Below, piece by piece: positions 12,470-49,320 of a stretch of DNA of 64,000 nt; the stretch's first letter is position 1, and each line of letters starts with the position of its first letter. Source of the DNA: Spirochaetaceae bacterium (GTDB taxonomy: Bacteria > Spirochaetota > Spirochaetia > Treponematales > Breznakiellaceae). A program made the translations under genes and the position numbers. The stretch is from positions 1,582-65,581 of the forward strand of contig JAITJI010000101.1 in the NCBI GenBank assembly GCA_031279015.1. Reading direction: 5' to 3'. The notes beneath the pieces were generated by a model that was given only the letters and a program-made list of their open reading frames with translations, was not told the DNA's origin and did not search any database.

Positions 12470-12548
12470 ATAAAAGCTTATAACTATTCAGGTGTTTTTC
12501 TGCGTTACTCATTCACAATTCAAACAGCTTGCGAAGGAGAGGTCACTA

Positions 12549-13976: not shown

Positions 13977-13988
13977 AGGAGTTTTTTT

Positions 13989-16955: not shown

Positions 16956-16983
16956 TGCTTTTGCAAGTAATTGAGGATATACT

Positions 16984-17799
16984 ATGAGCGTTGTTTTATT
17001 AACTATGGTTTTTGCCGCCATTCTGGCTTTTATTTTGGGCTCCACCCTTGGTTTTTTTCGGGAATTCTTTAAGGTTGAGGAGGATCCCCTGATCGGTACG
17101 ATCCGGGAGGTCTTGCCGGGGGCAAACTGCGGGGCCTGCGGGTTCCCGGGTTGTGATGCTTACGCTACAGCCATAACTTCGGGACAGGCGGAGATCAACA
17201 AATGTTCCGTAGGAGGCAAGGAGACGGCGGAAAAACTCTCCGCTATCATGGGGGTAAAGGTCTCAATGGTGCCTGTGGTGGCGGTATTGGCCTGTCAGGG
17301 CTCCCAGGAACATGCCCCCCTCAAGGGCAACTATACGGGCATTCCCAGTTGCGCCGGGGCAAAACTCTCCGCCGGAGGAACAAAACTCTGTGCCTGGGGT
17401 TGCCTGGGCTATGGGGATTGCACTGCGGTCTGTCAATTCAACGCCCTAAGCATGGGGGAAAAGGGGTTGCCCCGCGTAGATTATACCAAATGTACGGGGT
17501 GTAAGCTCTGTATCGCCGAATGCCCCCAGCAGCTCCTCCGGGAAGTTCCCCGGGAAAGGCAGGGCGCGGCGGTTCTCTGCTCCAACCGCAACCAGATCAA
17601 GGCGATGGTCCTTAAAACCTGCAAGAAAGGCTGTATCAAGTGCGAACTCTGTGTCAAAAACTGTCCGGAAAAATGTATTGCCATGGAAAACGGCATTCCC
17701 CTGGTGGATTATACAAAGTGCAGTTCCTGCGGAACCTGCATTTCCAAATGTCCCACCAAGGCCTTTGTTTTGCTGCAGGATACTGTTTTTCCGGCATGA
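16984..17799 (+). CDS. rnfB: Rnf complex subunit B (polyferredoxin)
   Basis: N-terminal TM segment, then the LPGANCGACGFPGCDAYA motif and several CxxCxxCxxxCP clusters. Confidence 0.9.
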   Translation: MSVVLLTMVFAAILAFILGSTLGFFREFFKVEEDPLIGTIREVLPGANCGACGFPGCDAYATAITSGQAEINKCSVGGKETAEKLSAIMGVKVSMVPVVAVLACQGSQEHAPLKGNYTGIPSCAGAKLSAGGTKLCAWGCLGYGDCTAVCQFNALSMGEKGLPRVDYTKCTGCKLCIAECPQQLLREVPRERQGAAVLCSNRNQIKAMVLKTCKKGCIKCELCVKNCPEKCIAMENGIPLVDYTKCSSCGTCISKCPTKAFVLLQDTVFPA

Positions 17800-35504: not shown

Positions 35505-37097
35505 TCAGTTCCCCAGGATCTTCAGGGCTTCTTCCCGGTAGCAGTCCATGATGTAGGGAATACCCGTTACCTTTACACATTCCCCGGTAAGGGACATAAT
35601 ATCCTTCCGGCTTATCACCCCGATGTTGAAACGCCGGGCGCCAGCCATAAGCTGCTGCAGGCCCACTTTGATCTTATCGGCATAGCTGTAAATACCGACG
35701 GCCCCAAGGGGAATATTTTTGATTTCATCGGTCCCTACGATGTTTTTGACCTTTTCGTAGTTAACAAAGATCTCCTCCGGGGTCTTGCCAAAGTCAGAGA
35801 CCGTCTTGGGAAGGCTCCCGTCCCTGATCCACTGGGCAATATTCTTGCCCACCATTCCGGGGATCATCAGGCCCCGGCCCATACAGACCGCCTTGGCGTA
35901 TGGAGCGCCCAGAGCAAGGGCCTTAAACACACCATCCTCAGAGCTGAAACCTCCGGCAAAGGCCAGATCCGGAACCCGTTTGCCCTTTGCCGCAAGGATA
36001 GCGGCGAATTCCCAGGCGGCGCTGTGAAGGTAGATCGAGGGGATGCCCCACTCTTCCATCATCCGCCAGGGACTCATCCCCGTACCCCCGGAGGCGCCAT
36101 CGATGGTGAGGAGATCGATATGCGCGTCGGAACAGTATTTGATCGCCATAGCCAGCTCCTTCAGGCTGTAGGCACCGGTTTTAAGGGTGATCCGCTTAAA
36201 GCCCAAACTCCGCAGCCGGGCCACCTCCTGCATAAAACCTTCTTCGGTGACAAAACCCAAACGGCTGTGGCGCTCAAACTCCTTGATAGCCCCGGACCTG
36301 TACGAAGCCTGGATGATGGGGTCCGAGGGATCCGGCGTGACGATGTAACCCCGTTTTTGCAGTTCCAGAGCTCGTTCCAACTGGGCAACCTTGATCTCTC
36401 CGCCAATACACTTGGCGCCCTGCCCCCATTTTAGTTCAATCGTCTCAATTTTATGTTTATCGATGATGTATTCGGCCACCCCAAGATTGGTATCCTCCAC
36501 ATTCATCTGGATGAGGATCTCGCCATAACCCGAATGGTACTTCCGGTACGCCTCAATGCGCCGGTCCATATCCGGGGCCTTGGTAACCTTCTTTGCATTG
36601 TTGAGCTCCAGCGCCGGGTCGATACCGCAGACGTTTTCTCCACAGACGATGGTAACCCCCGATATTGCCGCCCCTACGGCAAAATGCTCCCAGTTTTTCC
36701 GGGCAATTTCCGTGGAACCCAGGGCCCCGGTAAAAATCGGCGCCGCCATCTTTACCTTCTTATCCCAGCCATAGGCCGTTTCCGTGCTGACCATGGGGAA
36801 GCGGGCGTTGTCCGGATCCGCCGGCACCCCGGGAGGCAGGCCTTCCGCACCTTGGGCATAGCCCTGGATGTTGAGGTGGGAATAGTCCACGGGGTAATTC
36901 TTATCACCCCCGGCGGTGACATCCCCAAAAGGCCCCGGATAGATGAGTTCCCGGCCCCGGAAGGTGGCCTTGAAGATTTCACAGTTGCCCCGGCATCCAT
37001 CAACGCACCGTGAACACAGACCACTGCAAGGCACTACACTTGCGGAACGGTTTACCGATCTTGTGGCATCATTACTGTTCGGTCTTTGCAGATTCAT
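35505..37097 (-). CDS. FMN-binding glutamate synthase family protein (GltB FMN-domain-like, stand-alone) with a Cys-rich N-terminus
   Basis: About 530 aa. CSGLCSRCVDGCRGNC cluster, TIDGASGGTGMSPW and GGFSSEDGVFKALALGA (Glu_synthase TIM-barrel motifs). The start MNLQRP at 37097 is preferred. Confidence 0.8.
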   Translation of the reverse strand: MNLQRPNSNDATRSVNRSASVVPCSGLCSRCVDGCRGNCEIFKATFRGRELIYPGPFGDVTAGGDKNYPVDYSHLNIQGYAQGAEGLPPGVPADPDNARFPMVSTETAYGWDKKVKMAAPIFTGALGSTEIARKNWEHFAVGAAISGVTIVCGENVCGIDPALELNNAKKVTKAPDMDRRIEAYRKYHSGYGEILIQMNVEDTNLGVAEYIIDKHKIETIELKWGQGAKCIGGEIKVAQLERALELQKRGYIVTPDPSDPIIQASYRSGAIKEFERHSRLGFVTEEGFMQEVARLRSLGFKRITLKTGAYSLKELAMAIKYCSDAHIDLLTIDGASGGTGMSPWRMMEEWGIPSIYLHSAAWEFAAILAAKGKRVPDLAFAGGFSSEDGVFKALALGAPYAKAVCMGRGLMIPGMVGKNIAQWIRDGSLPKTVSDFGKTPEEIFVNYEKVKNIVGTDEIKNIPLGAVGIYSYADKIKVGLQQLMAGARRFNIGVISRKDIMSLTGECVKVTGIPYIMDCYREEALKILGN

Positions 37098-37215
37098 ATA
37101 ACACTCTCCATTCGTTGAATTACACCTCTCTTTTAGTAACAATTATTCTACCATGGGTTATTGAAAATGCAAGGGGCATTGGAAATACCCGTTAAATCGT
37201 ATAAGGTATAACGGT

Positions 37216-37533
37216 ATGACCGAATCAACAAGGCGAATCATTGAAGCAATAGAGGCGGTTCCTCCGGGCAAAGTATCCTGTTACCGGGACATCGCCTTTA
37301 CCGCAGGACTGCCCAACGGCGCCCGGCAGGTGGTCCGGGTTCTCCACTCCATGACCCGGGTCAGGAAGCTTCCCTGGCACCGTATCATAAAGGCCAACGG
37401 TCACATCGCCTTTGCCCCGGGAGATGGGCTGGAACTACAGGCGGCCCTGCTCCGCGCCGAAGGAGTCGAGGTCTCCGCTACAGGAACGGTTGACCTGGAC
37501 CGGTTTGGGCTTACTTCGTTTGACTGCTTTTAA
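37216..37533 (+). CDS. alkyltransferase-like (ATL) protein: an MGMT-fold DNA-binding domain with Trp replacing the active-site Cys
   Basis: 105 aa. VPPGKVSCYRDIA...GARQVVRVL...LPWHRIIKANG, that is PWHR in place of PCHR, as in E. coli YbaZ and S. pombe Atl1. Confidence 0.8.
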   Translation: MTESTRRIIEAIEAVPPGKVSCYRDIAFTAGLPNGARQVVRVLHSMTRVRKLPWHRIIKANGHIAFAPGDGLELQAALLRAEGVEVSATGTVDLDRFGLTSFDCF

Positions 37534-37810: not shown

Positions 37811-38824
37811 TTAATTCTGTTCCCATTGGCCATCCCCTGTTTCAAGGGCGGCGATAAATTCCTCCGCACCGGCAACGATCCCAATATCAGCGTAACGGAA
37901 AATAGGGGCATTTTTATCCGGATTCACCGCTATCAGCGTGGAGACGGATTCGATACCCGCCATGAACGCCGCCGCCCCCGATACCCCGACAGCCACGCAG
38001 AGTTCCGCAGCGCAACGGAGCCCCGACTGCCCGATAATTCCGGCAATTTCCCCCCAGCCGTTAAGGGCTGCGGGACGGCTAAAGCCCAGGGGGGCGCCGA
38101 AGCGTCCGGCGGCGCGCCGAAGCCGGACGCAGGCGGCCTTAGTCCCCAGACCCCGTCCGGCGGCAAAGATCAGCGGAGCTTTTTCCAGGGACCTGGCGGG
38201 AAAGACCTCGGACTGTTCGTAGTCCATAATCCAGGAAGGCAGGCACAGAGGGGCCGCCGGACGGTTTTCTACCCGGTTTTTTGTTTGGGAGGAACCGTTT
38301 CCCGCAGCCCGGACTATTTTGCCGCCGCTGACAGTCACCACCGCGGGCAGCTCTTTAATTTCCGCAGCCCAATCAAGGTTTGAACCGCAAACCTTTTTAC
38401 GGGCAAAAAGCCGTTCTCCCTGCCGGAACAGCATCCTGGTTTCCGGGAAACAGCCACAGCCAAGCCGGGCGGCAAGGCGTACTCCCAGTTCGTGACCGGC
38501 CAGGGAAGAAGGAAACAGGATAAGACCGGGCGGCCGTTCCGCACAGAGGCCCTCCAGCCGGTGGAGGCAGCCTTCGATATTCCGGATGTTCCCGCCGTCC
38601 ATACCGTCCGTATGGGCAAAGCCGCCGCCCGGAAGACCGCAAACAACTACGTCAGGGACCGGGGACCATGCCGGAGACATACCTTGGGACAGGGAGTCAG
38701 GAGAGACGCCGGGCAGCCAGAATTCCACCTGGTCCTCATTTTTTTTGACGGGAACGATAAGCTCCCAGAGGAGGGCGGGGTCCGATGCCTGGAACAGGAC
38801 AAAGGCTATGTTCACTGTCTCCAT
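37811..38824 (-). CDS. divergent electron-transfer-flavoprotein alpha-subunit-like protein
   Basis: C-terminal ...GFSRPAALNGWGEIAGIIGQSGLRCAAELCVAVGVSGAAAFMAGIESVSTLIAVNPDKNAPIFRYADIGIV aligns with the EtfA FAD domain (SR..vd.gw...QiGqtG...Y.a.GISGaiQHlaG...IvAIN.D..ApIf..AD.G.V). The start METVN at 38824 overlaps the EtfB-like stop by 13 nt. Confidence 0.7.
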   Translation of the reverse strand: METVNIAFVLFQASDPALLWELIVPVKKNEDQVEFWLPGVSPDSLSQGMSPAWSPVPDVVVCGLPGGGFAHTDGMDGGNIRNIEGCLHRLEGLCAERPPGLILFPSSLAGHELGVRLAARLGCGCFPETRMLFRQGERLFARKKVCGSNLDWAAEIKELPAVVTVSGGKIVRAAGNGSSQTKNRVENRPAAPLCLPSWIMDYEQSEVFPARSLEKAPLIFAAGRGLGTKAACVRLRRAAGRFGAPLGFSRPAALNGWGEIAGIIGQSGLRCAAELCVAVGVSGAAAFMAGIESVSTLIAVNPDKNAPIFRYADIGIVAGAEEFIAALETGDGQWEQN

Positions 38825-39774
38825 CCATCCAGGTATTCCGTCCGGACCCAGGCGACGGATTGGGCCAGTTCGGCGCCGGCGGGAAGGAAACGGCAAATCT
38901 TCCGCCGTTTTTCCCGGCTAAAAAGCGGAACCCCGCCGGGGTCCCAATTCCCCCCGCCCGGCCCGATCCCGCCGGCAACAGGCGGTTGCGGTTTTTCAGC
39001 CTCCCGTCCTGAGGCGGCCATCCTGGCCCGTAAAGTTACCGCCCGGAGAGCCGCCACGGGACCGTTCCCCAACACCGCCAGCAGGGGCAGCCGGACCCTA
39101 AGCCGTTCCCGGCCGGAGTCGGTCATCCGTTTTACTTCGATCCCTCCGGCGCAGGGGCTAAGTTCCTCGACTCCCGTCAGCGCCGGAATCCCGAGGAACT
39201 CCGCCAAAAACAAGGGGACCGTACCGGTATCGGCCCAGCCCGCCTGGCGGCCCGTGAGAATGAGATCGTAGGCAGCGGGACCAAGGCAACTTCCCAGGAT
39301 AGCCGCAATGTGCCGGGGCCGGAATTCGGAGGCCCCAAGGTTCAATAGCGATACGTCAGACCCTGCGGGGGGAAGGGGGGCGTTGGGGGGGGCCTCCCCC
39401 GCAGAGGGGGCAGCGGAAGACGGGGGCCGGAGGTCCCCGTCTGAAGCGAGGGGGAGACTTCCCCCCTTGTCTTGCCGGCATTGCTCCAAAGCGACATCAC
39501 TCAGATCCAGTACCCGTTCAAAGCCTGCGGCGAACAGAGTCTTACAGAGAGACAACGGGAGGGGAGCTGCGGTAATGGCCGTACATTCCGTTGTTTCGCC
39601 GGAGTCTTCCCAGGCTGAACGCAGCCGCAACGCCGTCTCCAGGGCGCTTTCGTCGAAACATCCGAAAATCCGCTTGACATAGCCTAAACCGGCGGAGAGG
39701 CTAAAGTTATCCCAATCCGCATCAACCACCTGATCAAAATCGGGGACGGCCTTAAAACAAACAGCGATCTTCAT
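38812..39774 (-). CDS. divergent electron-transfer-flavoprotein beta-subunit-like protein with a Pro/Ala/Ser-rich insertion
   Basis: MKIAVCFKAVPDFDQV is the EtfB N-terminus, and LILTGRQAGWADTGTVPLFLAEFLGIPALTGV resembles the EtfB core. A low-complexity insert of about 45 aa (DGDLRPPSSAAPSAGEAPPNAPLPPAGSD) is present. Confidence 0.65.
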   Translation of the reverse strand: MKIAVCFKAVPDFDQVVDADWDNFSLSAGLGYVKRIFGCFDESALETALRLRSAWEDSGETTECTAITAAPLPLSLCKTLFAAGFERVLDLSDVALEQCRQDKGGSLPLASDGDLRPPSSAAPSAGEAPPNAPLPPAGSDVSLLNLGASEFRPRHIAAILGSCLGPAAYDLILTGRQAGWADTGTVPLFLAEFLGIPALTGVEELSPCAGGIEVKRMTDSGRERLRVRLPLLAVLGNGPVAALRAVTLRARMAASGREAEKPQPPVAGGIGPGGGNWDPGGVPLFSREKRRKICRFLPAGAELAQSVAWVRTEYLDGWRQ

Positions 39775-39779
39775 GGGCC

Positions 39780-41204
39780 TTAATCCGTCAGCAGGACGCC
39801 CTTGTTCAGTATCCGGTTCGGGTCCAGGGCCCCTTTAAGTTTACGGAGAAGCGGGTAGGAACTGCCGTGTTCCTCCGGCATCCAGCGGGTGCGGTACTTG
39901 CCCGATCCGTGGTGGTGGGCGATACTGCCCCCCCGCTTTAGCGTTTCTTCCATGATCACCGTAATAACCTTCATGTAATCGCTGCGGGCGGATTCGGCCC
40001 CGTTTTTCACAATAAAACCAAAGGTGAAGTAGATGTTGGTCCCCTGAACGTAGCTGTGGGAGGAGTGCCCTCCGATGAAAACCAGGTTCGGCATTTCCCT
40101 GGGAAGCCGTTCCCGTATGGCCTCGTATATCGCGCCGATGGCGGACCAGGGGGCGGAGATCTCGCAGGTATCCGCCACAACGCCGTGACGGTAGTAAACC
40201 GGTTCGTCCATGTGATAACAGACATCGTTCCGGGTCTTGAGCCAGGACTCAACGGGCCTGGTCCCCAGGCCGGTAGTTTCATAGCGCCCGGCAATTTCGG
40301 CGATCCCCTGCCCGGTGGCGGCGGTAACGGAAGCGGGCCCCTCGGCAAGAAAGAGGAGGACGCAGTAATCGTCCTGGACAGAACCGCTGAACAGGCGCTG
40401 TACCTCCTCGGCATCGTGGAGCCGTACCACTGCGGGCCGGTAGCCTTCTACCATCACTTCCCGGATAAGCTTAAGCCCTGCGGACATACCTTTGATCGCC
40501 CAGGCCCACATCCACCGGGTCTCGGGAGTATGACGGAATATTTTGACGGTCACTTCGGTGATGAAACCCAGCATTCCCTCACTGCCGATAAAAAGATGCC
40601 GCAGATCGGGGCCCACCGAACGGCGGGGACTGTTCTTTATCCGGATAAGCTCACCGTCCGCAAGCACCACCTCAAGGCCCACCAGGAGATCCTCAATGCC
40701 CCCGTAGAGGGTAGAAAACTGACCGATGCTCCGGGTGGCTACAAGGCCCCCCAGATGGGCCAGGGGCAGGGACTGGGGGAAATGGCCGGAAGTAAAACCC
40801 CGTTCATTTAGGTAATTCTCCAGATATTCCAGGGGAGTCCCGCATTTGGCGGTGATCATCATATCTTGTTCGTTAAGGGCAATGATTCCGTTCATCTCAG
40901 AACCATCCAGAATGACTCCGCCCTCCTCCGGTTCAATACTCTGGGTAACACTGGACCCGCCGGTACGGGGAACCGTATCAATCCGGTTTTGATTGAGGAA
41001 GACCAGGGCCTTGGATACCTCTTCCGTATCACGAGGCTTTACCACACAGGCCGCCTGGGGAACCCAATCCTTACCGTCAAACCGTTCATACTGCCTAAAG
41101 CCGATGTAATCCACCGACGCCTTTCTGATTATCTCCGGGTCGTCTTGTACCCGGTCCCCGCCCAGTACGGCCCGTAATCCACTGATGATCGCCTGCTTAT
41201 CCAT
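39780..41204 (-). CDS. FAD-linked oxidase (PCMH fold), AGPS/YgcU-like
   Basis: 474 aa. VPRTGGSSVTQ, GHFPQS..LAHLGGLVATRSIGQFSTLYGGIEDL and GSEGMLGFITEVTVKI. This looks nearer to alkyl-DHAP-synthase-type enzymes than to GlcD-type, judged by eye. Confidence 0.8.
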   Translation of the reverse strand: MDKQAIISGLRAVLGGDRVQDDPEIIRKASVDYIGFRQYERFDGKDWVPQAACVVKPRDTEEVSKALVFLNQNRIDTVPRTGGSSVTQSIEPEEGGVILDGSEMNGIIALNEQDMMITAKCGTPLEYLENYLNERGFTSGHFPQSLPLAHLGGLVATRSIGQFSTLYGGIEDLLVGLEVVLADGELIRIKNSPRRSVGPDLRHLFIGSEGMLGFITEVTVKIFRHTPETRWMWAWAIKGMSAGLKLIREVMVEGYRPAVVRLHDAEEVQRLFSGSVQDDYCVLLFLAEGPASVTAATGQGIAEIAGRYETTGLGTRPVESWLKTRNDVCYHMDEPVYYRHGVVADTCEISAPWSAIGAIYEAIRERLPREMPNLVFIGGHSSHSYVQGTNIYFTFGFIVKNGAESARSDYMKVITVIMEETLKRGGSIAHHHGSGKYRTRWMPEEHGSSYPLLRKLKGALDPNRILNKGVLLTD

Positions 41205-41253
41205 CTATCTTTCCTTCCTGTTCATTTTTCCTTTGTTTCTTCACCGGCCCGGT

Positions 41254-41628
41254 TCATGTCCCGGCCTCAGGACGAAGATCCATTGAGCGGGACGCTATTA
41301 CATCCACGCCGGAATTGCAAATATTTTTTACGATAATGTCCCCACACTTCAGGGGGGCGCTCACTTTCATTTTGTAAAGTACCCGGAGACACCGGCCAAT
41401 CAGCGCCTTAGGCACTTCTTCCCGGCTTATCACCGGCAGCCGGGGCAGGACTCCCCCGGCTATCGCCACGGTGGTGGTGAGCATCCGCGTCGGTTCCCGG
41501 TACTCGTGGATGCCGTGCTTTTCACCCCGAGGACACTCATTGCCGCTGACGGTGATACTCCCCGCGGTTTCGGTAACCGTGAGGCGGCAACTGTTGGGAC
41601 AGACGATACAGATGAATTCCCTTGTCAT
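41254..41628 (-). CDS. DUF1667 domain protein (small Cys-rich subunit of GlpA/NOX-type complexes)
   Basis: MTREFICIVCPNSCRLTV...GNECPRGEKHG...PTRMLTTTV. AGGAGAG lies upstream of the ATG at 41628. Confidence 0.8.
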   Translation of the reverse strand: MTREFICIVCPNSCRLTVTETAGSITVSGNECPRGEKHGIHEYREPTRMLTTTVAIAGGVLPRLPVISREEVPKALIGRCLRVLYKMKVSAPLKCGDIIVKNICNSGVDVIASRSMDLRPEAGT

Positions 41629-41738
41629 AATCTCTCCTGACTTTATAATACCACTCCGTGCCATGTATGGGAGGGGGAAGTCGCGGCAGCTTCACCGCCG
41701 GGCCCTGCGGCCTGCGGTACAGACGCCTCTGCTGCGGC

Positions 41739-42977
41739 CTACCCCCGCATCTCGACCAGCAGGGGTCCCTTGGTTTCGAGCTCAAAACTGAGCATCTCCG
41801 GGGGTGTGACATGGCGGCATCTCCTTTGCAGCCGGACCTGATCCCCGGTAGAACACAGCAGATCCGCCGCCGCTACAGGGTTTTTTACCCGCAGGAAGAA
41901 GGCGGTCTTTCCATCGGAATCCTCCCGGCGAATCCGCTGGGGTACCACAAAGTTGACGTTCTCCCCGGCTTCCACCGGGTCCCAGTCTGGGACGGAGAGT
42001 TCCCCCCGCAGAAACGCCGCCGCACCCCGGGCGGCGGCCTCCCCGGACTGGGATACATAGTCCACCAGGTCAAAGACCGCCGCCACATTTCCCGCAGCGA
42101 AGATCCCCGGCACACTGGTCATACAGGACGAGTCTAAGACCGGCCCCCTGGTCCGGGGATCAAGTTCTATCCCTGCCTTAACGGACAATTCGTTCTCCGG
42201 GATCAGTCCTACCGCCAGTACCAAAAGATCGCAGGGAACCACGGTTTCCGTGCCGGGGAGGGGCTTACGGTCCGGCCCAACCTTGACAGTGGTAACAGAC
42301 TCAAGCCGGTCCCGTCCCCGGATCCGGACGACGGTTTCCGAAAGGTGCAGGGGAATGTTAAAATCGTCAAGGCATTGCACAATGTTCCGGGTCAGCCCGC
42401 CGGGGTTCTCCATCACTTCGTACACTCCCTTTACCTCAATGCCCTCCAGGGTCATACGCCGGGCCATGATGAGTCCGATATCCCCGGAACCGAGGATCAC
42501 CGCAGTCCGCCCCGGCAGGCAGCCTTCCATGTTAATGTAACGCTGTACCGCCCCGGCGGTGAGCACCCCTGCAGGCCGGTCCCCGTAGATCAACACCTGG
42601 GCGGCTGTCCGTTCCCGGCAACCCATGGCCAGGATGATCGCCCCGCACTCAATGTCAAGTATTCCGTCCCGCCTGTTGCAGGCAAAGATCCGCCGGTCCG
42701 CGCCGATCTCAAGGACCGTGGTTTCGGTAAGGGTTTCGATACCCGATGTCTCCACCTGGTCGATAAAAGCCTGGGCGTATTGATTCCCCGACAAGCGGCA
42801 GCCAAAGCGGTGTATCCCAAAACCATCGTGGATACATTGCTGGAGGATGCCCCCCAGATCCGCGTCCCGCTCCAGAAGGAGTACCCTTTCTACACCCTGG
42901 CGCTTGGCTTCCAGGGCTGCCGCCAGTCCTGCGGGGCCCGCGCCGATTACAGCAATACCGGTATGCAGTTTTTTCAT
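41739..42977 (-). CDS. NAD(P)/FAD-dependent pyridine-nucleotide-disulfide-type oxidoreductase (NOX-like partner subunit)
   Basis: Two dinucleotide folds, IAVIGAGPAGLAAALEA and AVILGSGDIGLIMA, plus GIFAAGNV. ATGA overlap with the upstream gene at 42974-42977. Confidence 0.85.
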   Translation of the reverse strand: MKKLHTGIAVIGAGPAGLAAALEAKRQGVERVLLLERDADLGGILQQCIHDGFGIHRFGCRLSGNQYAQAFIDQVETSGIETLTETTVLEIGADRRIFACNRRDGILDIECGAIILAMGCRERTAAQVLIYGDRPAGVLTAGAVQRYINMEGCLPGRTAVILGSGDIGLIMARRMTLEGIEVKGVYEVMENPGGLTRNIVQCLDDFNIPLHLSETVVRIRGRDRLESVTTVKVGPDRKPLPGTETVVPCDLLVLAVGLIPENELSVKAGIELDPRTRGPVLDSSCMTSVPGIFAAGNVAAVFDLVDYVSQSGEAAARGAAAFLRGELSVPDWDPVEAGENVNFVVPQRIRREDSDGKTAFFLRVKNPVAAADLLCSTGDQVRLQRRCRHVTPPEMLSFELETKGPLLVEMRG

Positions 42978-44725
42978 GGTTCCCCCCTGCCCGCTTCAGG
43001 CCGGGTATCCGCCGCCAGTATATTGCTGCCCTCTCCCCGGAGGGTGATTGCCGTCAAGTCCTTCCCCAGTTCCCGGGCCAATAGTTCCACTACCCGGCTC
43101 TGGCAGAACCCCCCCTGGCAGCGGCCCATGCCGGCCCTGGTTCGCCGCTTTACCGCGTCCACCGATACCGGGGGAACCGGAGAACGCATGGCCGCGAGGA
43201 TCTCCCCTTCGGTGATACTTTCGCAACGGCAGACGATCCTGCCGTAGGCCGGGTCCCGGCGGATAAGCTCGTCCTGCTGCTCCCGGCTTAAATGGCGGAA
43301 TTCTTTTTCCCGTTCCCTGACAGGATTGAAGTTGGGATCCCTTTCCAGGGGGAAACCGTCTTTTGCTGCGGCCCTGGTGAAGATATCCTCCACCATTTCG
43401 GCAATCGCCGGCGCTGCCGCCAGCCCCGGCGACTGGATGCCCCCCACGTTGATGAATCCTCCGGTAACCGGGGATAGCTCAATAAAAAAATCCTCTTTGT
43501 AATCCGCCGGACGGTTTCCGGTGAAGAAACGGATAATATCGCCATTGTTGATACCGTAATCTATCCCCAGGGACATGGCGTATGCCAGATCTTCCGGCGT
43601 GGAACTCAGGTCTTCCTTGTCAGGGACCTCCGTCGCCGAAGGGCCCATGAGTATGTTCCATTCCGGGGTACGGCACATACCGCCGCCTTTGGACTCGCTG
43701 TTTGATTTCTTTTGGGCGCTTCCCCCCAGGACCCCCGCCAGGGAGTGATAGACAGGCTTGCGGTTCTTGTCCAGAATCGCGATAGTCCCCTTGCGGGGGT
43801 GGATAGTGTAGCACTTGTCCCCGGCCATGGCGGAAATTTCATCGGCGTATACTCCGGCGCAGTTGATGATGTAGGACGCCTCTATGATGCCCCGGCTGGT
43901 AAGGGCTCCACTTACCCGTTTGTCTTTTGTCAAAATATCCGCCGCAGTACAATTGAACAGAAACCGGACTCCGTTCATGGCGGCGTTCTCCGCCAGGGCT
44001 ATCGCAACTTTGTAAGGCTCTACCAATCCCATGGAAGGAAGCCATATCGCCGCCGCCGGTTCTATCCCCTGTTCTGCAAATCCCGGCTCCAGGCGCTTGG
44101 CCTGTTCCCCGTCAAGGACCTGCGGGTTGAAAACCCCCATGGCACAGGCGCCTTCCGCGGCTTTTTCAAGAAGAGGCAGCGCACGGATGTCGGTAACGGC
44201 CCCCATGAGGCCGCAGCGCTGAAGTTCAAACCCCAGATCCTGCGCCCATTGGGTGTACATCTCGTTTCCCCGGAGGTTAAGCTTTGCCTTGAGGGTTCCC
44301 GGTTTTACATCATGCCCCGGATGGATATTGCCGTTGTTCGCCTTGGTCGCCCCGGAGGCCACGTCATCTCCCTTGTCAATGACGAGGATGCGGAGGCGGT
44401 ACTTTGATAATTCCCTGGCAATGGCGCAGCCGGATATACCCGCGCCGATGATAAGGGCGTCAACAGTATCAATGCGCCCTGCCCTTAGTCCCATTTCCCG
44501 GTACGGACCGTAGTCCTTGCGGGGAGCGGGCCTTCCCCGGACGGAAAGCTCGTTGACTACGTTCCTAACTCCGGACGGCGCCGCCGCCAGATGCCCGGCG
44601 GCAACGACTTCTTCCCAGGCGGCGCATTCGCCCCGAATGGTCAGAATGCCCCGTTCATCTATAGAGAGTTCCGGCTCCACATTCGGGAGGGTTTTTTTCA
44701 AGGTATCTTTGATTGATTCCAGCAT
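42974..44725 (-). CDS. FAD-dependent (GlpA/GlpD-like) dehydrogenase with an N-terminal BON-like domain and a C-terminal BFD-like [2Fe-2S] domain
   Basis: 583 aa. BON-like ILTIRGECAAWEEVVAAGHLAAAPSGVRNVVNELSV, then ALIIGAGISGCAIARELS (FAD fold), then CRCESITEGEI...RAGMGRCQGGFC (BFD-like). Confidence 0.85.
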   Translation of the reverse strand: MLESIKDTLKKTLPNVEPELSIDERGILTIRGECAAWEEVVAAGHLAAAPSGVRNVVNELSVRGRPAPRKDYGPYREMGLRAGRIDTVDALIIGAGISGCAIARELSKYRLRILVIDKGDDVASGATKANNGNIHPGHDVKPGTLKAKLNLRGNEMYTQWAQDLGFELQRCGLMGAVTDIRALPLLEKAAEGACAMGVFNPQVLDGEQAKRLEPGFAEQGIEPAAAIWLPSMGLVEPYKVAIALAENAAMNGVRFLFNCTAADILTKDKRVSGALTSRGIIEASYIINCAGVYADEISAMAGDKCYTIHPRKGTIAILDKNRKPVYHSLAGVLGGSAQKKSNSESKGGGMCRTPEWNILMGPSATEVPDKEDLSSTPEDLAYAMSLGIDYGINNGDIIRFFTGNRPADYKEDFFIELSPVTGGFINVGGIQSPGLAAAPAIAEMVEDIFTRAAAKDGFPLERDPNFNPVREREKEFRHLSREQQDELIRRDPAYGRIVCRCESITEGEILAAMRSPVPPVSVDAVKRRTRAGMGRCQGGFCQSRVVELLARELGKDLTAITLRGEGSNILAADTRPEAGRGEP

Positions 44726-44735
44726 CCGTTCCCCT

Positions 44736-44757
44736 TTGAATGTACACTAATTCGTAC
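44736..44757 (-). promoter_or_regulatory. operator copy 3: GTACGAATTAGTGTACATTCAA (minus strand), 11 nt upstream of the dehydrogenase ATG
   Basis: The reverse complement of 44736-44757 matches GTAC-N8-GTACATTCAA, as found at 45915 and 47690. Confidence 0.6.
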
Positions 44758-44759
44758 TT

Positions 44760-44789
44760 ATGGTAGCTTAGCCGCCGCCGGTCTGTCAA
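44760..44789 (-). promoter_or_regulatory. candidate promoter TTGACA-N18-TACCAT (minus strand) for the flavoprotein operon
   Basis: TTGACA is the reverse complement of 44784-44789, 10 nt past the regulator stop. The operator begins 2 nt after the -10-like hexamer. Confidence 0.45.
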
Positions 44790-44798
44790 GAAACAATT

Positions 44799-45725
44799 TT
44801 AATAAATCTGCATTTCCTTGCGGTGTTCCAGGACGGCAGTTTGACTTTCGGCAATAAGAGGAGGACGAAGAAACACTTTAAGAATATTCCCGATGTTGTA
44901 GTTGTGCTTGTTGATAAGAATAGCCGGAAGAAGGTAGGTTGATCCCCGTTCGTATTCCAGGGGAATCGCCGGAATTTTATATTCCTGTATCCAGGTTTCG
45001 TTCCGGTAAACCAGAAAATCGATCTCCCCGGAAATAAAAAGCGCCCGGCAGGTAACATAGGGACGCTCAATGATCCGTACCTTTTTCCCCTTACAGAGCC
45101 GTTTGGTCAAGACATATTGATCCACGCTGGAAGGATCCACCGCTATGGTATCTCCGCAAGAGATATTCCAAACTCCGGGCCGCTTGCTGCAAAGTACAAA
45201 GGGCGGCGAATATATGCAGCCGTCCAGAAGCATCATGATATCCAAATCGGGATACCTGGCGGCGATCCGGGTTGCCGTGGCCTGGGAAGTAACAGCGAAA
45301 TCGTAGATCATCCGGGATAGGGCGGCTCTCCGTTTATCCGCACCATGAATAAAGGCAAAGTTGAAGGGTACCGGACACTCCCCCATGACATCACAAATTC
45401 CCGTGGCAAGTCCGGCAAGATCGCCGGTAATTGCCGGAGGCATGGTAGCGGTGATATACTCAAGTCCTCCCAGCCGGAAAAGAGCCGCCTGGTTTACGGC
45501 GCTGATATAGGTTCCCATTTTACCCCGTTTTTCCAGGATAATAGCCCCACTGCCCTGTAACCCTTCCAGGGCCTTTTGCACGATTCCCCGGGAAGAAGCG
45601 TGTTTTTGGGTAAATTCATGGATGGTCGGCAGCCGATCCCCGGCGGAAAACCCGATGAGATCTCTGGCGATATAGGTATTGATTAACCAGGATTTCTTAT
45701 ATTTATGAGAAAGATGCTCATGCAA
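44799..45725 (-). CDS. GntR-type winged-helix regulator with a YhfZ-like C-terminal domain
   Basis: 308 aa. IARDLIGFSAGDRLPTIHEFTQKHASSRGIVQKALEGLQGSGAIILEKRGKMGTYI is a GntR HTH. The long C-terminal domain and overall length resemble E. coli YhfZ, from memory and not searched. Confidence 0.65.
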   Translation of the reverse strand: MHEHLSHKYKKSWLINTYIARDLIGFSAGDRLPTIHEFTQKHASSRGIVQKALEGLQGSGAIILEKRGKMGTYISAVNQAALFRLGGLEYITATMPPAITGDLAGLATGICDVMGECPVPFNFAFIHGADKRRAALSRMIYDFAVTSQATATRIAARYPDLDIMMLLDGCIYSPPFVLCSKRPGVWNISCGDTIAVDPSSVDQYVLTKRLCKGKKVRIIERPYVTCRALFISGEIDFLVYRNETWIQEYKIPAIPLEYERGSTYLLPAILINKHNYNIGNILKVFLRPPLIAESQTAVLEHRKEMQIY

Positions 45726-45869
45726 AGGATCTCATCCCCCAACTATATACTTTCATACAAACTGAATTATATAAAAAAAGGAGAAATTGTCCATTACGGC
45801 TGTCTTAAGATCATGCCGGAACCACCAGTCCTCCTTTGCTCCTCTCAAACAAAAAATGCAAAAAAATAT

Positions 45870-45899
45870 TTGACAAGAATGTAATTTGGCTGGTAAAAT
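45870..45899 (+). promoter_or_regulatory. sigma70-type promoter, TTGACA-N15-TGgTAAAAT
   Basis: TTGACA at 45870-45875 and an extended -10 TGgTAAAAT at 45891-45899. Confidence 0.55.
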
Positions 45900-45914
45900 G
45901 AGGAATATCGGATA

Positions 45915-45936
45915 GTACATAAAAATGTACATTCAA
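45915..45936 (+). promoter_or_regulatory. operator copy 1: GTACATAAAAATGTACATTCAA
   Basis: Starts exactly 15 nt after the -10. Contains the palindrome GTACAT-aaaa-ATGTAC. Confidence 0.6.
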
Positions 45937-45985
45937 TAATTCCGGCCGGTTATTGATCCGAAAAAAGTATGCCAAGGAGGACTAA

Positions 45986-46663
45986 ATGAAGATTGAAACA
46001 AGCGAGTATTTCAAAAAACCGGATAAGGGTACGGTATTGGTAACAGGAGCCATTTTCCTGTGGGTATTTATCGTTAATTTTTCCTGTATCTCTTTCATTT
46101 TTCCCGTATTTGACAAATTCTTGACTGCCAGCGGTAAATTCTTCCCAAATGTATACAATTCATACTCAACTCCCACATGGCCCATGTTCTTTGTAACCAT
46201 CTTATACTTCATCATGGGTAACAATCCTAAAAAGAGCCTTGAGATATTCTGCGGCGGACTGTTTGGGTTTTTGATGACGCTGTTGCTTTTCTGGGCAACT
46301 TGGCAATTGATGGGACAAAGCGCGGTATTCAGAGGAGAACCGGGTTTGCTGGAATTCAAATACGCTTTTATTCCGGTTATTTTTGTTATATTGGGACTGA
46401 TCATCATGGGCGGAACCGTCTGTCCCCTCATTTTTAATAACGCAGCTTTTACCTATCTGATTGCAGGCTCGATCTCTATAGGGAAGTTCTATTATACCCC
46501 CAACGGAATAGAACTTTATACCCGGGAAATCGGCAACAACGTCCTTGTGTTCCTAATCGGCGGCGGGATTTTTCTTGCCGGCTGTATAGTGATTCAGAAA
46601 CTGCTGATCCAATGGCTGACGGCTCAGGCTATGAAGGCCGCCGCCCAAGCCGGGGCTAAATAG
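45986..46663 (+). CDS. hypothetical polytopic membrane protein (about 6 TM) with an Ala/Lys-rich C-terminal tail
   Basis: 225 aa and hydrophobic. AAGGAGG lies upstream of the ATG. No family recognised. Lies in a lower-GC patch, judged by eye. Confidence 0.6.
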   Translation: MKIETSEYFKKPDKGTVLVTGAIFLWVFIVNFSCISFIFPVFDKFLTASGKFFPNVYNSYSTPTWPMFFVTILYFIMGNNPKKSLEIFCGGLFGFLMTLLLFWATWQLMGQSAVFRGEPGLLEFKYAFIPVIFVILGLIIMGGTVCPLIFNNAAFTYLIAGSISIGKFYYTPNGIELYTREIGNNVLVFLIGGGIFLAGCIVIQKLLIQWLTAQAMKAAAQAGAK

Positions 46664-46686
46664 AGCCGGCCGCTCTGGAAAAAGAA

Positions 46687-46713
46687 ATCCGCCTGTGTGA
46701 CCCCCAGGCGGAT
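46687..46713. terminator. hairpin ATCCGCCTG-n9-CAGGCGGAT between convergent genes
   Basis: 9-bp GC-rich stem flanked by A-rich and T-rich runs (aaagaa / tgtgtttcttt), so it could act in both directions. Confidence 0.5.
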
Positions 46714-46738
46714 GTGTTTCTTTGCGGGAAAAATCTAC

Positions 46739-47494
46739 TTATCTGATCGAAGCGTAAAGGAATTCTTCAACAACAGGCGTCCACCATTCCATATAACCCG
46801 CCTTTGTGGGGTGGGTTTCATCTTTTAACCAGAGTTTCCGCTGTGCTTTGGTGATATTGTTGAAGTCTGCATCGTTCCAGAGGTCCAATACGCCGATATC
46901 CCATACCTTCGCCAGTTCGTTTAAGCGATCAACCATCTTAGCATACCGTTCGTCATTGCGCTTAGAGCATGAATAAAACAGCACGGGACAATTCCAGGTT
47001 TGTTGGGCATAGGTGATAATGTACTCTATGGCGCCGGTTATCGTGGTCTTATCGTAGGCGCTTAAATTACCCGTTGGTCCCACAATATCACCCAAATTAA
47101 GCATATCCACCGTACCGCCGCTGGTATCATTAGTGGAAAGCTGGCAAATAAACAGATCCACATCCGCGTTTTTGTCAAATTTTGAACCGAATTCCATCCG
47201 GTGAACATAGGAATTTTCATTTTTATCCATCAGGGTCGTACCCGTAACGGCTTCTACCACGGCGGTACATTGATCACGTTTGGCAATATAGTGGGGAAAC
47301 GCCATCCCCTGACTCCCGTAGCCAACCGTAACGGAAGAACCCAGGAAATAAAGGGTTTTGCCCTTCAACGGACTGTTCGTCAACACTTCTATTTTTTCAA
47401 CATCATAATCCGTTGAATTACCGTTTGGACCGCAGCCCGTAAGAGTTACCGCCGCCATCAATAATACGATAATTCCTATCGACGATTCCTTCAT
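46739..47494 (-). CDS. SGNH/GDSL-family hydrolase lipoprotein
   Basis: Lipobox LTGC. Block I FLGSSVTVGYGS, block III QLSTNDT, block V DETHPTKAGY. The start MKESS at 47494 is preferred. Confidence 0.8.
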   Translation of the reverse strand: MKESSIGIIVLLMAAVTLTGCGPNGNSTDYDVEKIEVLTNSPLKGKTLYFLGSSVTVGYGSQGMAFPHYIAKRDQCTAVVEAVTGTTLMDKNENSYVHRMEFGSKFDKNADVDLFICQLSTNDTSGGTVDMLNLGDIVGPTGNLSAYDKTTITGAIEYIITYAQQTWNCPVLFYSCSKRNDERYAKMVDRLNELAKVWDIGVLDLWNDADFNNITKAQRKLWLKDETHPTKAGYMEWWTPVVEEFLYASIR

Positions 47495-47644
47495 TGTTTT
47501 CCTCCAAATTATCAAACTAAGGGTAATTGTATTGCGTCATGGCAAAAAATTCAAGCATAACAAATTTTACGCTGCCATTCCTTCCTGTTGCCGGAACACC
47601 CCGGGCATGAAGCCGCCAAAAATTCCATAAATATTAAAAAAAGT

Positions 47645-47674
47645 TTGACAGATTCAAATTTTACCTGATAAAAT
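47645..47674 (+). promoter_or_regulatory. sigma70-type promoter, TTGACA-N15-TGaTAAAAT
   Basis: Same architecture as 45870-45899. Confidence 0.55.
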
Positions 47675-47689
47675 AAAATTTACCGGATT

Positions 47690-47711
47690 GTACATAAAAA
47701 CGTACATTCAA
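47690..47711 (+). promoter_or_regulatory. operator copy 2: GTACATAAAAACGTACATTCAA
   Basis: Again starts exactly 15 nt after the -10. Matches copy 1 at 21 of 22 positions. Confidence 0.6.
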
Positions 47712-47784
47712 CGGTTCCCAATCCGGTGTTCCGGATAGACATGGGTAACGTAGTTATCCCTAATTGAAATGCATGGAGGGTTTT

Positions 47785-49320
47785 ATGAGTGAAAAGTACA
47801 TTATCGGTATAGACAGCGGTACCCAAAGCACACGGGCAATCATGTATGACAGCAAGGGTACCCGGATTGCCAGAGGAGCGGCGGAGCATCCAAGGTTGCT
47901 TTCTCCGCATCAGAACTGGGTGGAGCATGGCGTGAATGATATTTGGGAAGCCCTGCGGACTGCCGTGGCGGATATGTTTACCCATTTTACGGGAAATGCC
48001 GCAGATATTGCCGGCATTGGAATATCCAGCCAGCGGGCCTGTTGTTTGGCCCTTGATAAGGAGGGGAACCTTCTTTACAATCCCATAAGCTGGCTTGATG
48101 AACGCTGGCGCATGAATATTCCCTCCCTGGGACAGGTTACCAATAATAGCCCGGACCCCTTGTACCAGTTATTCTGGCCTTACTATTCCAAAACGAATTG
48201 GTTTAAGTTCAATATGCCCGAAGTCTACGAAAAGACCGTAAAATACCTGGGGGTTTCCGGATATATAGGCTATAAACTCACCGGCGGCTTTTATGAATCC
48301 ATTTCCAACAGTATGGGCTGGCCTTATGATGTCATCAACTGGAAGGCCTATGACGGGGATGTGGAAATTGAGTCCGTAGGAATGCGGCGGGATCAAATAG
48401 CGGAGCCAGTTCTTGCGGGAACCGTTATAGGCAAGATTACTCCGGAGGCGGCGGCGGCCACCGGCCTGCCCGAAGGCTGCCCCGTATCTGCCGGCGCCGC
48501 GGATAAACAATGCGAACTTCTGGGCGCGGGGACGGTAAAACACGGACAGGCGTACATCACCCTTGGTACCTTGAGCGGGCTGGATATTGTTTGCAACGAA
48601 TATAAACCGGCGCCTGATTTTTCCTACTTCACCTATTTAAGCGCCTTCCCCAAACTTTACAATTATGAATCCATGGCGAACAGAGGTTTTTTGCTGATAT
48701 CCTGGTTCCGGGATAATCTGGGAGACGGATTAAAGGCTGCGGCCAAAGAAGCGGGAATTTCGGTGGAAGCCCTGCTGGACCGTGAAGCAGAGGCAATCCC
48801 CGCAGGTTCCGAAGGCTTGGTAGTCCTGCCGGATTGGTCGTCCTCCGCCGCCCACCCCAGCGGCAAGGGAATATACCTGGGCTTTGATGACCGGCATAAA
48901 CGGGGACACATGTTCCGTTCCCTGGTGGAAGGTATTATCATCCAGATCAAACTTGGTACCGCAAAAATGACCGATTACCTTGGCCTGCCCATCAACGAAC
49001 TCTATATCGGCGGCGGCGGCAGCAAGAGCAACTTTACCGCCCAGGTAATTGCTGATGTATTTAATGTGCCGGTGTATCGTACCAGGGAATCGGAGAACTG
49101 TTCTCTTGGCGCGGCAATGTGCGGAGCGGTAGGAGCGGGCCTTTATACCGACCTGGCAAAGGCAATGGAAGGCATGGGTAAAAATTATGATCAGTTCCTG
49201 CCGAATAAAGGCAACCACGATCTGTATGAAGCCCTGAGCGACAAAGTCATCCAAAAACTCTATCCGGCGCTGGAAAACATTCTGAAGGATCTGGCAGAAC
49301 TTACCACGAATAAGCAGTAA
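47785..49320 (+). CDS. FGGY-family carbohydrate/polyol kinase
   Basis: MSEKYIIGIDSGTQSTRAIMYD (phosphate-1 motif), and GGGGSKSNFTAQVIADVFNVPV...GAAMCGAVGAG (FGGY C-terminal motifs). The ATG at 47785 follows GGAGGG. Confidence 0.85.
   Translation: MSEKYIIGIDSGTQSTRAIMYDSKGTRIARGAAEHPRLLSPHQNWVEHGVNDIWEALRTAVADMFTHFTGNAADIAGIGISSQRACCLALDKEGNLLYNPISWLDERWRMNIPSLGQVTNNSPDPLYQLFWPYYSKTNWFKFNMPEVYEKTVKYLGVSGYIGYKLTGGFYESISNSMGWPYDVINWKAYDGDVEIESVGMRRDQIAEPVLAGTVIGKITPEAAAATGLPEGCPVSAGAADKQCELLGAGTVKHGQAYITLGTLSGLDIVCNEYKPAPDFSYFTYLSAFPKLYNYESMANRGFLLISWFRDNLGDGLKAAAKEAGISVEALLDREAEAIPAGSEGLVVLPDWSSSAAHPSGKGIYLGFDDRHKRGHMFRSLVEGIIIQIKLGTAKMTDYLGLPINELYIGGGGSKSNFTAQVIADVFNVPVYRTRESENCSLGAAMCGAVGAGLYTDLAKAMEGMGKNYDQFLPNKGNHDLYEALSDKVIQKLYPALENILKDLAELTTNKQ

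Follow-up and report, generated by a model that had tools for sequence, protein, structure and literature searches.

A 64,000-nucleotide stretch of a Spirochaetaceae genome (assembly GCA_031279015.1, contig JAITJI010000101.1), hereafter the window, carries at 37811-45725 seven co-directional minus-strand genes that encode a YhfZ-like regulator, a GlpA-like dehydrogenase, a NOX-like oxidoreductase, a DUF1667 protein, an FAD oxidase and an EtfB-like/EtfA-like electron-transfer flavoprotein (ETF) pair (Table 1). In a first-pass annotation, made by a model from the letters alone, these genes were read as a composite flavoprotein operon behind the regulator, and all of the open reading frames (ORFs) concerned are present. 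The tight packing that it described is also borne out: the ATGA overlap of the GlpA-like and NOX-like genes (42974-42977) and the gaps of 5 nt (39775-39779) and 49 nt (41205-41253) follow from the ORF coordinates, whereas the 13-nt overlap at 38812-38824 holds given a start of the EtfA-like gene at the in-frame ATG read in the sequence, and the 110-nt gap (41629-41738) given a DUF1667 start at ATG 41628, which is preceded by an AGGAGA ribosome-binding site and agrees with orthologue N-termini. A 73-nt spacer (44726-44798) between the yhfZ-like and GlpA-like genes was absent from that annotation. Because this spacer contains a promoter-like site, the layout is probably that of a yhfZ-like regulator gene as its own transcription unit, followed by a six-gene operon.

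Table 1. Genes and predicted regulatory features of the locus, in window coordinates.
Feature	Position	Strand	Remark
YhfZ-like regulator	44799-45725	minus	ORF list
GlpA-like (BON-DAO-BFD)	42974-44725	minus	ORF list
NOX-like	41739-42977	minus	ORF list
DUF1667	41254-41628 from ATG	minus	124 aa from ATG 41628; mechanical ORF 41254-41664
FAD oxidase	39780-41204	minus	ORF list
EtfB-like	38812-39774	minus	ORF list
EtfA-like	37811-38824 from ATG	minus	337 aa from ATG 38824; mechanical ORF to TTG at 38896
Promoter of six-gene operon, sigma-70-like	44760-44789	minus	TTGACA-18-TACCAT, inside the 73-nt spacer
Promoter-like site of yhfZ-like gene	45793-45766	minus	TGGACA-16-TATAAT
Operator-like box 1	44742-44757		GTACACTAATTCGTAC; abuts -10 element of six-gene operon promoter
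Operator-like box 2	45915-45930		GTACATAAAAATGTAC, perfect palindrome; 56 nt before membrane-protein ATG, 16 nt downstream of promoter-like site 45870-45899 (+)
Operator-like box 3	47690-47705		GTACATAAAAACGTAC; upstream of kinase, 16 nt downstream of promoter-like site 47645-47674 (+)
Membrane protein	45986-46663	plus	225 aa, ~6 hydrophobic segments; box 2 in promoter
GDSL/SGNH esterase	46739-47515	minus	Lipoprotein-like N-terminus; Lipase_GDSL_2 1.4e-10
YgcE-like FGGY sugar/polyol kinase	47764-49320	plus	Likely true start ATG 47785 after GGAGG

Predicted control by a YhfZ-type repressor

The regulator is a GntR-type protein of 308 aa with HTH_41 (3.2e-15) and YhfZ_C (2.8e-31) domains in Pfam, and its score against the NCBIfam family YhfZ_full (NF041241; 198.7 bits, cut-off 260) makes it a family member rather than an equivalog. 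The motif GTAC-N7-TGTAC occurs three times in the window against 0.08 matches expected, each time just downstream of a -10 element, at the promoters of the six-gene operon, of a gene for a membrane protein and of an FGGY kinase gene. As these three promoters share a GTAC-N8-GTAC box, the functional unit would extend beyond the flavoprotein genes to 37811-49320, a predicted regulon delimited by the shared operator-like boxes.

Relatives of the locus were collected by scanning one genome per species; 80 loci were fetched and searched with the proteins of the window, 75 of them with an oxidase at least 45% identical to that of the window and 41 additionally with flanks of at least 5 kb on either side. 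Genes of the yhfZ type were found with the cluster in 30 of the 75 related loci and in 22 of the 41 well-flanked ones. When 1.2 Mb of related loci were searched for the box, allowing one mismatch and requiring an A/T-rich spacer, 55 of 87 boxes fell within the 14% of sequence that lies at most 400 nt upstream of cluster genes. The box was found upstream of the cluster in 26 of the 30 YhfZ-encoding loci, and it invariably precedes the leading gene of the unit, irrespective of which gene leads. Equivalents of box 1 are placed 36-63 nt ahead of the GlpA-like gene in L007, L008, L010 and L041, and an equivalent of box 2 is placed 71 nt ahead of the membrane-protein gene in L005. No GTAC box was detected in the DeoR-regulated variant loci L028, L057 and L076. 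The boxes are best explained as the predicted operator of the YhfZ-like repressor. Such a box would provide the first concrete regulatory handle for the YhfZ family within the searchable literature, and a route to the inducer and hence to the substrate. In the closest Treponema relatives the boxes are located at 4131-4146 (L005), 59-74 (L007), 231-246 (L008) and 611-626 (L010) of the respective loci.

Several minor features of the locus were recorded. The spacer between the NOX-like and DUF1667 genes (41629-41738) holds a duplicated GGCCGCAG; the two genes overlap in the close relatives L005 and L006, and L008 has a single 572-aa NOX-DUF1667 ORF. A terminator-like hairpin on the minus strand (38926-38946; 9 pairs, 6 of them G-C, followed by CTTTTT) lies within the 3' end of the EtfB-like gene, ~100 nt ahead of the EtfA-like start, and may be an attenuator or a chance occurrence; terminator-like sites number 20 in the region against 14.7 expected. 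No tandem repeats were found in the region.

Two flavoprotein modules

Every domain named in the first-pass annotation was recovered by Pfam profile hidden Markov models (HMMs) across the seven proteins; no protein of the operon scored above any NCBIfam equivalog cut-off, and thus none is a curated known enzyme. The GlpA-like protein (583 aa) contains a DAO domain (1.6e-58, residues 89-446) and a C-terminal Fer2_BFD domain (5.8e-13, residues 497-551). A BON domain on its N-terminal 70 residues is weak in the window protein alone (0.0017) but real across orthologues, as 17 of the 22 N-termini searched gave a match (E down to 4.9e-10). The top NCBIfam match is the type 2 glycerol-3-phosphate oxidase (188 bits, cut-off 460) and the closest solved structure is Mycoplasma GlpO (4x9m, E 1.3e-29). 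GlpO His51, Lys258, Arg320 and Ser348 are kept at the aligned positions and Ser47 is replaced by Asn (numbering counted in the alignment); in M. pneumoniae GlpO these five residues serve as catalytic base or bind the substrate and its phosphate. A role of the GlpA-like protein as a mere replacement for FixC, that is, as an ETF oxidase, was considered and dropped because the glycerol-3-phosphate site residues are retained. The NOX-like protein (412 aa) carries a Pyr_redox_2 domain (4e-30) and two dinucleotide-binding motifs in its translation, and the third protein is a small, Cys-rich member of DUF1667 (1.8e-27).

The three genes follow one another directly in the window, an order that is kept in 54 of the 75 related loci. 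In line with the first-pass annotation, the trio is of the GlpTk-NOX-DUF1667 type, known as GlpTk-NOX-MOX from Thermococcus kodakarensis, Thermotoga maritima and Clostridium perfringens, and found fused in Giardia (bioRxiv 10.1101/2024.02.29.582781). The likeness includes an identical order of the three genes and a DAO dehydrogenase that ends in a BFD [2Fe-2S] domain; the window protein also keeps the GlpO glycerol-3-phosphate site residues. The differences concern the N-terminal BON domain borne by the window cluster and by all of the oxidase-linked orthologues examined, and the genomic setting: the canonical trio lies beside a GlpP antiterminator and a glycerol kinase, whereas the window trio lies beside YgcU/Etf genes and YhfZ, the kinase in the window is not GlpK, and neither GlpF nor GlpP is present. 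A glycerol-3-phosphate-dehydrogenase-type complex is the predicted identity of the window trio, as regards both its activity and its assembly. We know of no established physiological electron acceptor for complexes of this type.

The FAD oxidase (474 aa) comprises FAD_binding_4 (the PCMH fold; 1.1e-35) and FAD-oxidase_C (1.2e-26) domains and is 46% identical to E. coli YgcU over its full length (483 columns, E 8e-150). Its closest solved relative by sequence is alkyl-dihydroxyacetone-phosphate synthase (AGPS), a eukaryotic peroxisomal enzyme (4.9e-47, against 1.2e-19 for LctD), which was also the top fold match (TM 0.76-0.78) of a moderate AlphaFold model (pLDDT 67, pTM 0.69, built from 14 sequences) that served for fold ranking only and not for pocket analysis. 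In the oxidase, the counterparts of AGPS Arg419, Tyr578 and the His615-617 loop are R261, Y392 and H430-432; among 14 oxidase homologues Y392 and H430-432 are invariant and R261 nearly so, and the choice of these catalytic residues is corroborated by PDB entries of the AGPS mutants Tyr578Phe and Arg419His. AGPS Arg515, on the other hand, is aligned to Met, and the N-terminal 140-215 residues of AGPS are missing: alignments begin at residue 216 of 658 in the mammalian enzyme and at residue 140 of 584 in that of Dictyostelium. The domain ahead of the FAD domain presumably helps to form the lipid-binding tunnel of AGPS. A further difference is the ETF partner of the window oxidase; AGPS requires none.

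The retention of AGPS catalytic residues speaks for an ether-lipid biosynthetic route, in which glycerol would be converted to glycerol-3-phosphate, dihydroxyacetone phosphate (DHAP) and, by an AGPS-type reaction, alkyl-DHAP, as suggested for PA3026-PA3024 of P. aeruginosa (PMC8151288). The BON domain of the GlpA-like protein, being of a lipid-binding type, would also fit such a route. We nevertheless consider it very improbable: the oxidase lacks the N-terminal residues of AGPS, ORF clustering of the relatives revealed no acyltransferase or fatty-acyl reductase conserved nearby, the repressor-plus-kinase architecture together with a dedicated ETF suggests catabolism, and no lipid or growth phenotype was reported for the P. 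aeruginosa deletion (PMC8151288).

Both small proteins at the end of the operon are placed in the ETF family by profile HMMs, in agreement with the divergent EtfB/EtfA pair of the first-pass annotation, and their type is that of YgcR/YgcQ, a group assignment that rests on direct comparison with YgcQ and YgcR. The EtfB-like protein (320 aa) matches Pfam ETF at 2.2e-9 (37.8 bits, cut-off 26.7), with only profile positions 72-175 of 181 covered; it keeps the G-R-Q...D...V-P...AE-LG-P core of canonical EtfB in the alignment and is 40% identical to E. coli YgcR over 112 aa (E 3e-13). The EtfA-like protein matches ETF_alpha at 2.7e-18 (66.2 bits, gathering score 27), Paracoccus ETF alpha (1efp) at 5.7e-21 and E. 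coli YgcQ at 1e-25 (29% over 234 aa). Most motifs of the FAD domain are kept in this protein, with a flavin-contact stretch reading SGAAAFMAG where the canonical sequence is SGAIQHLAG. Among the NCBIfam families tested (EtfA/EtfB, FixA/FixB and mycofactocin Etf), both proteins fall below the cut-offs, with best scores of 89 bits against 240 for the alpha and 45.5 bits against 445 for the beta subunit, and no ferredoxin domain was found on the EtfA-like protein in the Pfam scan.

A separate observation concerns a Pro-, Ala- and Ser-rich in-frame insertion of ~45 aa (…GGSLPLASDGDLRPPSSAAPSAGEAPPNAPLPPAGSDVSLLNLG…) in the EtfB-like protein (window 39340-39500, residues ~92-145). It is lineage-specific: none of the orthologues from Treponema, Firmicutes or E. 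coli has it. Repeat expansion was dropped as its explanation, as no tandem repeat underlies it.

The gene order of a PCMH flavoenzyme followed by EtfB and EtfA equals that of lctD-type systems, and one may ask, as the first-pass annotation did, whether the operon encodes a single electron-confurcating or bifurcating complex, in which co-oxidation of reduced ferredoxin via the Etf would drive NAD+ reduction and Rnf would balance ferredoxin. An anaerobe that has no quinones must oxidise glycerol-3-phosphate in some other way, and the transfer of electrons from a glycerol-3-phosphate-like donor (~-190 mV) to NAD+ is uphill. A mechanism modelled on the lactate dehydrogenase/EtfAB of Acetobacterium is thermodynamically attractive. 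Bifurcating Etf structures are also among the PDB matches (5ol2, 4kpu, 7qh2 and 6fah), and an Rnf operon is encoded in the window at 12492-17799, as the first-pass annotation had stated. The analogy with the A. woodii LctBCD system that it had drawn turned out to be weak, however. LctD, LctC and LctB are detectable PDB matches and LctBCD likewise joins a PCMH-fold FAD enzyme to EtfB and EtfA, but the oxidase is far closer to AGPS than to LctD, and in comparison with D-LDH (9qgz) the His of 'GDGNLH' is replaced by Y392 and the Glu of 'GEHG' by H431, with the final His alone kept. Because two of the three metal-ligand positions thus carry AGPS residues, the oxidase is not an LctD-type 2-hydroxyacid dehydrogenase. 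Moreover, the Etf pair is of the YgcR/YgcQ and not the LctB/LctC type and lies far below all NCBIfam Etf/Fix cut-offs, the flavin contact departs from the canonical sequence, the EtfA-like protein lacks the N-terminal ferredoxin domain that LctC has, the E. coli orthologues sit beside FixCX-like YgcN/YgcO, suggesting plain electron transfer towards quinone, and the distance to Rnf is 20 kb, with no box in common. A bifurcating complex is thus regarded as unlikely, and bifurcation and coupling to Rnf are speculation.

Conservation across phyla and related systems

The trio was present in 54, the Etf genes in 61 and both in 46 of the 75 related loci; among the 41 well-flanked loci the corresponding numbers were 33, 38 and 31, and 31 encoded an FGGY kinase. 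Many anaerobes of gut and sediment share the cluster; examples are termite Treponema, Eubacterium limosum, E. callanderi, Anaerobutyricum hallii, Angelakisella massiliensis, Oceanirhabdus seepicola and an Izimoplasma. Oxidase homologues are 78-92% identical in Treponema/Spirochaetales metagenome bins and, surprisingly, still 61-70% identical in Clostridiales/Oscillospiraceae. The exact order YhfZ-GlpA-like-NOX-DUF1667-oxidase-EtfB-EtfA with a divergent kinase recurs in several Firmicutes, the seven-gene order being found in L002/L003, L020, L024, L027, L031, L033, L047 and L080, whereas the Oscillospiraceae order is permuted with all parts kept (oxidase-GlpA-like-NOX-DUF1667-kinase-EtfB-EtfA). 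The first-pass annotation had made the single-operon idea depend on a gene order conserved in relatives, and the idea stands on this count as the order is kept across phyla. It also knew of no described system with both modules in one operon, and a literature search of open-access papers likewise retrieved no account of the composite system or of what YgcU does. The arrangement is not rare, being widespread in genomes.

These distributions also inform the view that two unrelated neighbours are involved, namely a trio that forms an ordinary anaerobic glycerol-3-phosphate dehydrogenase and, apart from it, a YgcU/Etf dehydrogenase acting on another substrate. Each module is found alone elsewhere, and in the window gaps of 49 and 110 nt flank the DUF1667 gene. 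However, the modules occur together in 31 of the 41 well-flanked loci, spanning Spirochaetota, several Bacillota families and Izimoplasma; the rearranged Oscillospiraceae clusters keep all parts behind a single box located 40 nt before the first gene; and the GlpA-like genes of these clusters bear the BON domain throughout. The end of transcription between the DUF1667 and oxidase genes, by which the first-pass annotation would have recognised two unrelated units, finds no support at the sequence level: a scan of the 49-nt gap gave no convincing terminator-like site, the two genes overlap by ATGA in Firmicutes (L002), and a DUF1667-oxidase fusion exists as one database protein (P0074). Two independent units are therefore considered quite unlikely.

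All six operon genes are functional genes under purifying selection. Computed against Treponema orthologues, dN/dS was 0.04-0.10 for the oxidase, 0.08-0.17 for the GlpA-like and 0.06-0.12 for the NOX-like gene, and 0.16-0.28, 0.09-0.22 and 0.19-0.32 for the DUF1667, EtfB-like and EtfA-like genes, respectively. The Etf pair evolves ~3x faster than the dehydrogenases; pseudogenisation of these fast-evolving genes was ruled out by their values of 0.09-0.32. The G+C content is 0.58-0.62 across the operon (38000-44000) against 0.45-0.56 in the flanks, and this island, together with dehydrogenases 61-70% identical to those of Clostridiales, would agree with an ancient horizontal transfer that linked Firmicutes and the Treponema of termite guts.

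The E. coli ygc cluster named in the first-pass annotation is real (MG1655 region) and homologous to the second module via YgcU, YgcQ, YgcR and YgcE. In the K-12 cluster (ygcN-O-P, ygcQ-R-S-U, ygcW, yqcE and ygcE), the order ygcU ... ygcR-ygcQ corresponds to oxidase-EtfB-EtfA, whereas the GlpA/NOX/DUF1667 trio is missing and FixC/FixX-like YgcN/YgcO, a GlpP-like antiterminator (YgcP), two MFS transporters and the short-chain dehydrogenase YgcW are present instead. The open-access literature search returned no informative paper on the function of this cluster. In P. aeruginosa, PA3026-PA3024 of the GliR regulon encode an FAD oxidoreductase, a GlpD-like dehydrogenase and an FGGY kinase that are co-transcribed and strongly co-induced (PMC8151288). 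By the annotation of that paper, this triad of oxidase, GlpD-like protein and FGGY kinase resembles the window cluster, although it is controlled by an AraC-type activator, has no Etf genes, NOX or DUF1667, and shares its regulation with genes for a phospholipase and a lipid kinase (PMC8151288). For more distant oxidase homologues (~33% identity) in Alphaproteobacteria, the kinase is the only cluster neighbour kept; these loci also hold a sugar-type ABC transporter, an Fe-alcohol dehydrogenase and a short-chain dehydrogenase.

Variants of the cluster were also noted. The DeoR-type loci L028, L057 and L076 (Anaerobutyricum hallii DSM 3353) encode, as a core in this order, a BON-GlpA-like protein, a YgcE-type kinase, an oxidase and a GlpK-type kinase; NOX and DUF1667 are absent from L028 and L076 and lie ~6 kb downstream of the oxidase in L057. 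In L076, EtfB'/EtfA' genes follow the core and a DeoR regulator is divergent, while L057 has EtfA-like matches after the core. E. callanderi and some Treponema clusters (L016, 13300-16477; L004, 13235-15590) encode a second, very divergent FAD_binding_4 oxidase of 478-516 aa with 'ENGAG' in place of the EHG/HHHG motif, alongside a canonical EtfB/EtfA pair, an extension that is missing from the window.

A proposed pathway and its neighbourhood

The third promoter with a box precedes a kinase that is 34% identical to E. coli YgcE (E 5e-90), has XylB/YgcE-like proteins as its best match and reaches none of the NCBIfam equivalog cut-offs (215 bits against 380 for XylB, 138 against 590 for GlpK). 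The phosphorylated polyol substrate put forward in the first-pass annotation fits this kinase, which shares the predicted operator, and the conserved glycerol-3-phosphate site residues. Both modules are of known kinds, of which the trio has been studied biochemically and the YgcU/YgcRQ module has not, and their combination is common in genomes. On balance, the cluster is probably one catabolic unit for a small phosphorylated glycerol-like polyol, with three promoters under a YhfZ-type repressor; as judged from sequence comparison, a small phosphorylated glycerol-like compound is what it most likely burns. We infer the substrate, the order of the two oxidations, all electron acceptors and the binding of the boxes by YhfZ.

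In the proposed scheme, the repressor would act through the GTAC-N8-GTAC boxes on the operon, membrane-protein and kinase promoters. Following uptake of a small glycerol-like polyol or 1-substituted glycerol, the kinase would phosphorylate the polyol, and the BON-GlpA-like flavoenzyme would oxidise the glycerol-3-phosphate-like end to a dihydroxyacetone-phosphate-like ketone, the electrons probably passing from the BFD [2Fe-2S] domain via the Cys-rich DUF1667 protein and the NOX-like flavoprotein to NAD(P)+. The YgcU/AGPS-type flavoenzyme would then act on the ketone phosphate or a closely related intermediate and deliver its electrons to the dedicated YgcR/YgcQ-type ETF. The membrane protein is a candidate uptake component of the regulon: it is 93-95% identical, at the same position, in L005 and L006, and matched no family in Pfam (even at E <=10) or NCBIfam. 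Membership of the esterase in the regulon is uncertain; its gene is kept beside that of the kinase in L005 and L006, and no box was found near its own promoter-like site (47554-47526).

Several observations weigh against a single catabolic unit of this kind. AGPS chemistry involves no net redox change, which would leave the need for an ETF unexplained if the oxidase works like AGPS. The YgcE-like kinase of the window is of another FGGY type than the GlpK-like kinase of most Firmicutes clusters (25-31% identity), which itself scores below the GlpK cut-off (384 bits). All-against-all clustering of 1099 ORFs revealed no conserved transporter, aldolase or isomerase with the cluster, an extra family in 15 loci being generic ABC ATPases. 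The oxidase/Etf pair occurs without the trio in L001, L017, L030, L054 and E. coli, and the trio occurs without the oxidase according to the literature (bioRxiv 10.1101/2024.02.29.582781); as each occurs without the other, the two modules can work separately. Finally, no yhfZ-like gene was found in the fetched stretch of L005 and L006, the closest Treponema relatives, so that in box-bearing close relatives either the regulator is encoded elsewhere or yhfZ is specific to the window lineage.

A bolder version of the scheme, which we rate as a long shot, would make the AGPS-type enzyme, the GlpA-like dehydrogenase and the FGGY kinase a hitherto unrecognised route for the breakdown of 1-O-substituted glycerols, for example glyceryl ethers or other lipid-backbone fragments. 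The kinase would produce a 1-substituted glycerol-3-phosphate and the GlpA-like enzyme a 1-substituted DHAP, the substrate type of AGPS, from which the truncated AGPS-like enzyme would expel the substituent by flavin-N5 covalent chemistry and free DHAP, with the YgcR/YgcQ ETF maintaining or resetting the redox state of the flavin. Hints in this direction, none of them decisive, include the intact AGPS and GlpO active-site residues, the BON domain on the dehydrogenase, the SGNH esterase beside the Treponema kinase, and the phospholipase and lipid kinase of the Pseudomonas regulon. If true, this would amount to an oxygen-independent cleavage of the glycerol ether bond and would give a function to E. 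coli ygcU/R/Q/E and P. aeruginosa PA3024-PA3026.

The window instance is ordinary among its relatives, and the family is well-defined and testable and reaches into E. coli and P. aeruginosa. Whichever chemistry applies, the catabolic unit favoured here ties together the orphan sets ygcU/ygcR/ygcQ/ygcE and PA3024-PA3026 and the DUF1667-containing glycerol-3-phosphate dehydrogenase complex in one conserved system, so that each is open to study via the others. It is also present in cultured and partly tractable gut anaerobes, namely Eubacterium limosum, E. callanderi, Anaerobutyricum hallii and Angelakisella. Should the YgcR/YgcQ-type ETF bifurcate or the AGPS-like enzyme cleave glycerol ethers, new anaerobic energy or lipid metabolism would be at hand.

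Other genes of the window were recorded in passing. The Rnf operon is complete, with RnfC, RnfD, two Rnf-Nqr membrane subunits, RnfB and presumably RnfG between them; it lacks a GTAC box, and nothing evident connects it with the flavoprotein genes. Just downstream of the flavoprotein operon, a 545-aa protein (35505-37142, minus) with a Cys-rich N-terminus matches the FMN region of Glu_synthase (2.2e-16) and no NCBIfam family. Directly after the kinase gene lies a gene for a 722-aa CHASE2 sensor-adenylate/guanylate cyclase fusion (49461-51629, minus), and an MGMT-like DNA-binding gene (37216-37533, plus) is found downstream of the operon.

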